Below, piece by piece: positions 27,901 through 30,900 of a stretch of 64,000 nt of DNA. This DNA is from Escherichia coli (lineage in GTDB: Bacteria; Pseudomonadota; Gammaproteobacteria; Enterobacterales; Enterobacteriaceae), in the NCBI RefSeq assembly GCF_045037415.1, contig NZ_CP173438.1. One strand, given 5' to 3'. Position numbers: made by a program. The stretch's first letter is position 1; each line of letters opens with the position of its first letter.

Positions 27901-30900
27901 GCACTTAACGCCAGGTGGCTGGCCTGGCGCGCATTCTCGGCGTTCTGTTTCACCGTTGCGGTCAGTTGCTCCATGCTGGCTGCCGTCTCTTCCAGCGAAG
28001 CAGCCTGTTGCTCGGTGCGCGAAGAGAGATCGTTATTGCCGGTAGCGATTTCGCTGGCACCGCTATAGATGGCATTGGCCCCGTTGCGCACATCACCGAC
28101 GGTACGCATCAGCTCTCCCTGCATATGGCGCAAACTCTCTGCCAGTTGCCCCATCTCATTAGAGCCATCCACCTCAATCGGTTTCACCAGATCGCCGCCT
28201 GCAATATGACGAATGCTGTCAATCAGGCGATTCATTGGCGCTACCAGCGAGGCTTTAATACCGAACCAGACGGCGAAGATGACCGCCAGTACGACGATCA
28301 TCACGCCCACCAGAATCCACATCGCCTGGCTGTAGGAGGCATTGTTATCGCTGACGGCGATATCATGGAGCCGATCGTTTTGTTCCATGTAAGCCACATA
28401 CTGCTTCTCGAAACCGTCCTGATATCCCTGAGTCGGCTGATCAAAGAACTCGTTGATTTTGCCTGCACCTAACAGTTGGATCAGCTCCGCCAGCGCATTG
28501 TGATAAATATCGTAATTACGTTTGATCTCTGCCGCTGCGGCGGTGCTCTGACGCGGGTCACGCGGCAACGCTTCGTAATCCGCCCAGTTTTTTTCCGCCT
28601 GTTTCAGCGAAATACTGGCACTCTGCATCAGCTCAGCAACGGTTGAACCGCTACCAATATTATTCTGATCCATCATGTAGCGGATACCCGCGCGGTTGAG
28701 GGTGTTACGCGTCTGCAACAACGCGACCCAGCTGCCATTCAGCGTGGATTGCTGCTGGCGAATGGTTTGTAAAACAGTGAAATTTTCTTTGTCATTCTTT
28801 AAGGCATTAAAGAACAGACCGCCTGATGTCAGTTGTAAAAGGCCAAAAACGGCCAAAACCAGCAGTAAGCTGGTCACAATTTTGATACGTTTTAACATGG
28901 TTTCTCTTTCCTGTGGACCGATGCAAGATTTTCGGCCTGGAAAGGAAAAACTTTATGAATATCCCGCGGAGATTACGCCGAGTAATTTTATTCACACTCT
29001 GAATTTAAAAAGCCATTATTTACATAAATTATTCACAATATAAATATGTGATATGAATCACATATTTATCGTCACTTAAACGACGCCTTTGCCGCTCAAC
29101 CGCAAAACTGACCGCTTACATCCCTAAAATAACCACTCAGTTATTTACCTTACTTTACGCGCGCGTAACTCTGGCAACATCACTACAGGATAGCGGTCAA
29201 TTTACCTCCTCAAACGCAACGCAAACCTAGAACGGCTTCGGCCAACTATTAATCAATACATGCCAGGTTTTACTATGGATACTAAAAAGATATTCAAGCA
29301 CATACCCTGGGTGATTCTCGGAATCATCGGTGCATTCTGCCTCGCGGTAGTTGCATTACGTCGGGGGGAGCACGTCAGCGCCCTGTGGATCGTGGTCGCC
29401 TCTGTATCGGTGTATCTGGTGGCGTATCGCTACTACAGTCTGTACATCGCCCAGAAGGTGATGAAACTCGACCCCACGCGCGCGACGCCTGCGGTTATTA
29501 ACAACGACGGTCTGAACTACGTTCCGACCAACCGTTACGTGTTGTTTGGTCACCACTTCGCCGCTATCGCCGGTGCTGGTCCGCTGGTGGGTCCGGTTCT
29601 CGCCGCGCAGATGGGCTACCTGCCTGGCACGCTGTGGCTGCTGGCGGGGGTCGTGCTGGCCGGTGCGGTTCAGGACTTTATGGTGCTGTTTATCTCCTCT
29701 CGCCGTAATGGCGCATCTCTTGGTGAGATGATCAAAGAAGAGATGGGACCAGTACCGGGGACTATCGCGCTGTTTGGCTGTTTCTTAATCATGATCATCA
29801 TCCTCGCCGTCCTGGCGCTGATTGTGGTTAAAGCCCTGGCCGAAAGTCCGTGGGGTGTCTTCACCGTTTGCTCAACCGTACCGATTGCGCTGTTTATGGG
29901 TATCTACATGCGCTTTATTCGTCCGGGGCGTGTGGGTGAAGTCTCTGTCATTGGTATCGTGCTGCTGGTTGCCTCTATCTACTTCGGTGGCGTGATTGCT
30001 CACGATCCGTACTGGGGTCCGGCACTGACCTTTAAAGACACCACCATTACCTTCGCGCTGATTGGCTATGCGTTTGTTTCCGCACTGCTGCCGGTGTGGC
30101 TGATCCTCGCACCGCGCGACTATCTGGCAACCTTCCTGAAAATCGGCGTTATCGTCGGCCTGGCGCTGGGTATCGTGGTGCTGAACCCGGAACTGAAAAT
30201 GCCTGCCATGACCCAGTACATTGACGGTACTGGCCCGCTGTGGAAAGGCGCTCTGTTCCCGTTCCTGTTCATCACCATCGCCTGTGGTGCGGTATCTGGC
30301 TTCCACGCGCTGATCTCTTCCGGTACGACGCCAAAACTGCTGGCTAATGAAACCGACGCGCGTTTCATCGGCTACGGCGCAATGCTGATGGAGTCCTTCG
30401 TGGCGATTATGGCGCTGGTTGCTGCGTCCATCATCGAACCGGGTCTTTACTTCGCGATGAACACCCCGCCTGCTGGCCTTGGCATCACCATGCCTAACCT
30501 GCATGAAATGGGTGGCGAGAACGCGCCGATCATCATGGCGCAGCTGAAAGACGTTACCGCACACGCGGCAGCGACCGTCAGCTCCTGGGGCTTCGTGATT
30601 TCGCCAGAGCAGATCCTGCAAACCGCGAAAGACATTGGTGAGCCTTCTGTCCTGAACCGTGCAGGTGGTGCGCCGACGCTGGCGGTAGGTATCGCTCACG
30701 TGTTCCACAAAGTGCTGCCGATGGCTGACATGGGCTTCTGGTATCACTTCGGTATTCTGTTCGAAGCACTGTTCATCCTGACCGCGCTGGATGCGGGTAC
30801 CCGTTCTGGCCGCTTTATGCTGCAAGACCTGCTGGGTAACTTCATCCCGTTCCTGAAAAAAACCGACTCTCTGGTTGCCGGTATCATCGGTACTGCGGGC

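Follow-up and report, generated by a model that had tools for sequence, protein, structure and literature searches.

The tsr–btsT intergenic region

The DNA that we analyzed, hereafter the window, is a 64-kb (64,000-nucleotide) stretch of an Escherichia coli genome, and its positions 28899–29274 make up the complete 376-bp intergenic region between tsr and btsT. The tsr gene (27234–28898, minus strand), which encodes the serine chemoreceptor, was recognized by its match to the NCBIfam model NF011615 (1221 bits), whereas btsT, also called yjiY (29275–31425, plus strand), which encodes a pyruvate transporter, takes its identity from the annotation of identical E. coli genomes. Over 1 kb around the intergenic region, the window shows 100% identity with Nissle 1917 and many more genomes, and these identical genomes label the flanking genes tsr and btsT. 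Aligned with K-12 MG1655, the intergenic region shows a sole difference, a missing G near position 28984, which falls in spacer sequence outside all of the motifs described below and ~30 bp upstream of the tsr −35 element. Because the region is otherwise that of MG1655, published results obtained in K-12 are directly transferable to it.

For cross-species comparison, we sampled btsT loci from 80 species and aligned the region from 20 genera that have tsr and btsT side by side; the distances between elements were measured in a set of 81 sequences from the Enterobacteriaceae together with Erwinia, Pantoea, Mixta, Rahnella and Leminorella. In the 20-genus alignment, invariance was confined to the −10 and −35 elements of the sigma-28 promoter, the two half-sites for CRP, three repeats, a block reading TGGCAnnAT and, finally, the ribosome-binding site. 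This last block precedes the btsT start codon (CCAGG and the ATG at 29275, together spanning 29263–29277, plus strand), with AGG and ATGGATA invariant in all 20 genera; an in-frame ATG at 29260 showed no conservation in the same alignment. The original prediction, made from the sequence of the window alone, held that sigma-28, CRP and BtsR-type signals lie in this region and that they agree with the known regulation of both genes. All three signals are present, and the agreement holds by way of the K-12 literature on a near-identical sequence. The observation is confirmed and its interpretation is right, and the FliA, CRP and BtsR signals were all already known for K-12.

A sigma-28 promoter directed at tsr

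The promoter that reads toward tsr consists of a −35 element, TAAAGTTT (28948–28955, minus strand), and a −10 element, GCCGAAAA (28929–28936, minus strand), with an 11-nt spacer between them and with the −10 element ending ~30 nt upstream of the tsr ATG. Taking as the consensus for FliA (sigma-28) a −35 of TAAAGTTT and a −10 of GCCGATAA separated by 11 nt and pointing at the gene, we found that TAAAGTTT-N11-GCCGAAAA (28929–28955, minus strand) had a single mismatch, agreeing at 15 of 16 positions, and that it was the sole match with two or fewer mismatches in the 64 kb, for which the chance expectation was 0.07. A weight matrix trained on 24 other published ChIP-seq sites, with tsr left out (Fitzgerald et al., 2014), scored the tsr site at 21.1 bits, which ranked first among 127,946 positions and exceeded the training median of 19.8. 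Conservation was equally strict at both elements: TCGGCC of the −10 element, which equals the published FliA ChIP-seq motif, and the plus-strand sequence AAAACTTTA of the −35 element were invariant in the 20 genera, and the two elements were present in every E. coli haplotype that we examined.

The tsr promoter of K-12, which belongs to class 3 of the flagellar promoters and is read by FliA, does not differ from that of the window: its 28-mer TAAAGTTTTTCCTTTCCAGGCCGAAAAT is identical and, seen from the tsr ATG, lies at the same place and points the same way; the window departs from it only by the 1-bp deletion further upstream. FliA ChIP-seq placed a peak over this same 28-mer with a fold-above-threshold of 94, making it the third-strongest FliA peak, and deletion of fliA lowered tsr expression from 630 to 9 (PMC4183435). 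SELEX with the RpoF (FliA) holoenzyme likewise returned a match in the tsr/btsT spacer (PMC5493296). What had been proposed as a sigma-28-like promoter is thereby borne out by its near-consensus sequence, its matrix rank, published binding and fliA dependence.

BtsR-type repeats upstream of btsT

On the btsT side of the region, R2 (ACCGCTTA, 29111–29118, plus strand) and the promoter-proximal R3 (ACCACTCA, 29132–29139, plus strand) are the published repeats for BtsR, also called YehT. The pair ACCGCTTA-N13-ACCACTCA (29111–29139) has zero mismatches to a pair of ACC[G/A]CT[C/T]A and has no equal elsewhere in the window. As it was the btsT promoter itself from which the motif was derived, this match is an identity and not an independent prediction. 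Control of yjiY/btsT by BtsR/YehT is established (PMC5431176), and the "yjiY YehT bs" oligonucleotide of Behr et al. (2016), which includes both R2 and R3, corresponds to 29087–29144 of the window (PMC4847170). From the CRP site through to the ATG, the window is identical to the K-12 yjiY/btsT promoter (Kraxenberger et al., 2012; Behr et al., 2017), with which it shares the two repeats, the 13 bp that separate them and the CRP core. The direct repeats separated by N13 that the original prediction assigned to BtsR/YehT are thus exact and equal the published operator.

A third, degenerate copy of the repeat had also been proposed, for which the best candidate is R1 (GCCGCTCA, 29091–29098, plus strand), with 1 mismatch and a start 20 bp upstream of that of R2. 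When the window was scanned with a weight matrix built from the R2 and R3 sequences of other species, R3 ranked first, but R1 taken alone, at 9.4 bits, came only 18th of ~128,000 positions. Because its bare sequence match is weak, the credibility of R1 rests on its register and its conservation, both of which back it. Among 65 non-redundant species outside Escherichia, the R1 columns were A in 98%, C in 100%, C in 100%, G in 85%, C in 98% and T in 100%, which is on a par with the corresponding columns of R2 and R3. A perfect ACCGCT[CT]A occupied the R1 position in 56 of the 81 sequences, with seven of eight matches in 23 more, and three repeats in 20/21-bp register stood upstream of btsT orthologues in 80 of the 81. 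The G at position 1 of R1 is found in K-12/B2-type E. coli and in E. albertii and is rare elsewhere; other E. coli haplotypes carry the perfect ACCGCTCA. A still weaker 8-mer in the same 20-bp register, R0 (GTCACTTA, 29071–29078, plus strand; 2 mismatches), was rejected as a fourth repeat, as it ranked 862nd, had a column conservation of 38–69% and reached a perfect copy in just a handful of species, our L020 and L051 among them.

From its register and conservation we infer that R1 is probably a third BtsR-binding position. A tentative alternative, which we regard as possible but the less likely of the two, is that R1 is not a BtsR site, that BtsR uses the two published repeats, and that R1 is conserved for another factor, for an alpha-CTD or UP-like contact, or for a DNA shape needed between CRP and BtsR. 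The published model is indeed one of two repeats: the 2012 abstract of Kraxenberger and colleagues reportedly describes two direct repeats, and conservation of the BtsR motif has already been published, with a later comparative paper speaking of the 'known motif'. Moreover, a single 8-mer carries little information, and K-12-type E. coli tolerate the A-to-G change at position 1 of R1. However, R1 shares both ACCGCT[CT]A and the 20-bp register with R2 and R3 across the 65 species, and its core is 98–100% conserved, whereas another factor would be unlikely to need the same 8-mer.

With R1 read as a third BtsR position, the operator would differ from its earlier portrayal, in that the published K-12 description, in the part of it available, gives two repeats, whereas the conservation seen here points to three phased repeats with a CRP site 44 bp upstream. 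Operators of other LytTR regulators (AgrA at P2/P3, ComE, PlnC/D, VirR, and YpdB at yhjX) are also built from 8–10-bp direct repeats, spaced 11–13 bp apart upstream of a weak promoter (PMC4847170), but they are usually described as pairs, whereas the btsT operator resembles a triplet, to which a phased CRP site is added. As a separate observation, the yhjX oligonucleotide of the same study (PMC4847170) seems to contain a candidate degenerate upstream copy, too.

A CRP site in near-fixed register with the repeats

The CRP site (29040–29069) has as its core TGTGATATGAATCACA (29047–29062), the only perfect TGTGA-N6-TCACA in the 64-kb window, where 0.06 would be expected. The GTGA and TCACA of its half-sites were invariant in the 20 genera, and a CRP-like site with no more than two mismatches was found upstream of the BtsR repeats in 81 sequences. 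Genomic SELEX with CRP yielded a match in the yjiY<>tsr spacer (PMC3105977), the Jung laboratory has reported that yjiY is regulated by cAMP/CRP (PMC5431176), and a PbtsT-lux reporter was significantly reduced when crp was deleted (PMC7730263); no entry for yjiY, btsT or tsr was found in supplements of one CRP ChIP-exo study.

The arrangement of these elements varied little among the 81 sequences. Measured from start to start, the CRP 16-mer and R1 were 44 bp apart in 71 of them (the others having 43, 45 or 46 bp), R1 and R2 were 20 bp apart in 75, and R2 and R3 were 20 or 21 bp apart in 80. The interval between the CRP site and R1 was conserved in length and not in sequence. In the window, the centers fall at 29054.5 (CRP), 29094.5 (R1), 29114.5 (R2) and 29135.5 (R3), so that each step is close to two helical turns or a multiple of them. 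Because ~20 bp corresponds to two helical turns, CRP and the three repeats would lie on the same face of the DNA.

Downstream of R3 lies a putative extended −10 element of btsT, TGGCAACAT (29172–29180, plus strand), with its TG at 29172–29173 and its hexamer CAACAT at 29175–29180. It fits TGnnAnnnT, which was found 38–40 nt after the start of R3 in most of 52 non-redundant species, the counterparts in other species reading TGGCAnGAT or TGyCATGAT. We infer that btsT transcription starts near A29187, from an extended −10 without a good −35, as is usual for promoters that need an activator; this start would center R3 at −51.5, R2 at −72.5, R1 at −92.5 and the CRP site at −132.5. A generic sigma-70 scan of the region gave 3 matches against 1.6 expected, none of them at the conserved TGGCAACAT, and the supplements of Kim 2012, searched by gene name or coordinate, had no btsT start-site entry. 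The distance of ~−132.5 for CRP, which is as provisional as the start from which it is counted, lies outside both the class I (−61.5 to −92.5) and class II (−41.5) positions; with three repeats between CRP and the promoter, co-dependent upstream activation provisionally fits better.

The CRP site stays with btsT across E. coli arrangements

Not all E. coli genomes have the arrangement of the window. In 2751 of 5389 genomes, tsr lies directly beside btsT, as in the window and K-12, whereas in 2061 the two genes are separated by the 4-hydroxyphenylacetate (hpa) cluster (hpa type) and in 363 by an unannotated 180-aa ORF (ORF180 type), for which we found no Pfam match. Either the cluster or the extra ORF thus parts tsr from btsT in roughly 45% of E. 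coli genomes. The insertion place is an AT-rich hypervariable spacer (28960–29039), which also carries the 1-bp difference from K-12, and the spacer part of the 20-genus alignment (columns 80–170) was unalignable and rich in indels.

On one side of this spacer, the segment 28899–28959 (minus strand), which comprises the tsr 5′ UTR and the FliA promoter, is the only tsr-upstream sequence retained in every E. coli arrangement. In the hpa type, shared sequence stops ~4 nt past the −35 element, and the tsr ATG follows the stop codon of hpaR after just 118 bp; in HB101 the match is restricted to positions 1–61 of the intergenic query. On the other side, genomes of both the hpa type and the ORF180 type have a perfect TGTGA-N6-TCACA exactly 44 bp before R1, with diverged flanks. 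Megablast breakpoints at query position 194 had raised the possibility that btsT had lost the CRP site in half of E. coli, which we rejected when alignment showed the site still in place with its spacing unchanged. The CRP site belongs to btsT, not to tsr, and it stays with btsT across the E. coli arrangements. Because the tsr gene of hpa-type strains keeps just 118 bp and similarity ends past the −35 element, we conclude that the region is composed of two separable modules, one for tsr (28899–28959) and one for btsT (~29040–29274), joined by the hypervariable spacer.

A CRP site shared by the two genes, and acting directly on the tsr promoter as well, is improbable. Such a bidirectional site would accord with its place between the genes in this haplotype, ~133 bp from either predicted start, and with the SELEX result, which names the yjiY<>tsr spacer without assigning a target (PMC3105977). 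However, the distance from the CRP center to the sigma-28 promoter among the 81 sequences varied from 43–105 bp with the genes side by side to 378–1227 bp where insertions intervene, the tsr gene of the hpa type has no CRP site in the 118 bp upstream of it, and tsr expression is almost wholly FliA-dependent (PMC4183435).

In its outer arms, the palindrome around the CRP core of btsT is largely peculiar to this haplotype. The original prediction placed a perfect core inside a 22-bp palindrome; the core is perfect, but the palindrome is longer, at 30 bp, with arms (29040–29052 and 29057–29069) of 13 nt each that are 100% complementary and separated by 4 nt. Its extension, which had been singled out for attention, is not borne out by comparison, as conservation across other genera and E. 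coli haplotypes is limited to GTGA-N6-TCACAtAtt, and the bases further out in the arms are confined to the K-12-type haplotype, save for a part of them shared with E. albertii. Although perfect 13-nt arms exceed what the CRP consensus needs, a role beyond CRP, whether as the site of a second regulator, as a cruciform or as an RNA hairpin, is highly improbable given this lack of conservation in the outer arms, an Rfam search of the region that returned only sub-threshold noise, and an extension that is A/T-only within an AT-rich spacer and resembles the A/T-rich flanks of the CRP consensus.

Discussion

Our reading, to which we assign a probability of roughly 90%, is that the tsr–btsT region holds two independent control modules placed back to back, one governed by FliA for tsr and the other by BtsR and CRP for btsT. 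For the first, RNA polymerase with FliA reads a class 3 flagellar promoter, which places tsr in the flagellar-chemotaxis regulon. The second would be a sigma-70 promoter that depends on activators, having an extended −10 and no good −35; here the LytTR-type regulator BtsR, phosphorylated when the BtsS kinase senses external pyruvate, switches btsT on, with cAMP-CRP, bound further upstream, as a co-activator. On this reading btsT responds to two inputs, the availability of pyruvate and carbon limitation. The literature reports, for the near-identical sequence of K-12, FliA binding and the dependence of tsr on it, CRP binding to the spacer, the dependence of btsT on CRP and BtsR, and binding of BtsR to R2–R3.

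To these published elements, sequence comparison appears to add four: the conservation of R1, the near-fixed spacing of CRP-44-R1-20-R2-20/21-R3, the attachment of the CRP site to btsT, and the lineage-specific outer arms of the palindrome. A more specific proposal, whose chances we judge to be about even, is that the btsT operator is a phase-locked array in which CRP, R1, R2 and R3 stand at two-turn intervals and BtsR binds at three positions. If so, natural lineages would differ in the gain or threshold of pyruvate-induced btsT expression, K-12/B2-type E. coli together with E. albertii through the A-to-G substitution in R1, and hpa-type strains through the ERIC insertion that they carry in the 5′ UTR.

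For the most part, our analysis re-finds the textbook regulation of two characterized E. coli genes, and the comparative refinement is modest. The conserved R1 and the fixed distance to CRP across Enterobacterales nonetheless suggest that BtsR and CRP assemble on one face of the DNA, and the view of the region as two modules is useful for pyruvate biosensors based on PbtsT and for comparing btsT expression between E. coli lineages.

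Gene insertions and CRP-like half-sites in the tsr-btsT spacer

The spacer that joins the tsr and btsT modules (28960-29039) is the site occupied by other genes in other E. coli, as we found by comparing the related loci L082, L083 and L084. An 11-gene hpa (4-hydroxyphenylacetate) cluster lies at this position in 2061 genomes and a 180-amino-acid ORF in a further type (363 genomes); a Pfam search with the latter returned no match.

Also within the spacer is a direct repeat of TTATTCACA with 41-bp spacing (28988/29029), which gives rise to isolated TCACA half-sites. The sequence AGTAA-N6-TCACA at 28981-28996 is a CRP-like site with two mismatches, which an additional G in K-12 turns into GTGA-N7-TCACA. 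This arrangement is confined to the haplotype of the window and is probably non-functional.

Variation in the btsT leader

E. coli of the hpa type (~2061 genomes), as well as E. albertii and Escherichia sp. E1V33, carry an insert of ~123 bp in the btsT 5' UTR (4165-4306 in L083, and also present in the related loci L002 and L004). The insertion point corresponds to ~29246 in the window, which itself lacks the insert. Judged by the ERIC primer sequences, the insert looks like an ERIC element (GTGAATCCCCGGGAGCTTA...AGTAAGTGACAGGGGTGAACG), and it could change either the translation of btsT or its control by CsrA.

Control of btsT by CsrA has been published (PMC5431176, PMC7730263). One candidate CsrA contact is the GGA at 29188-29190, within CAGGATAG, where the btsT transcript is inferred to begin. 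This GGA is specific to Escherichia, because other genera have CAGCATAG; CsrA more probably targets the CCAGG of the ribosome-binding site, which is conserved. Further along the inferred 5' UTR is a small hairpin, GGC-UUCG-GCC (29234-29243), in which one stem pair covaries (GC in four and AU in four of 10 genera) and which is absent from Enterobacter and Leclercia; this hairpin is a weakly supported candidate.

Related motifs outside the intergenic region

Another FliA motif from ChIP-seq, AAAGATTAATCTCCTTATGCCCGATAAC, has been described as 'tsr/yjiZ convergent' (PMC4183435). We found it with one mismatch at 27177-27204 (+), where it covers the lgoT/yjiZ 3' terminus as well as the gap that precedes the tsr stop codon, in antisense orientation toward the 3' end of tsr.

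Outside the window, the yhjX promoter oligonucleotide represents a fragment of the YpdB operator (PMC4847170). This fragment seems to contain a degenerate copy, GTCATTCAT, ~21 nucleotides upstream of the published site A, which hints, at the level of sequence, that three-repeat arrays may be shared by both paralogous LytTR systems, YpdB and BtsR.
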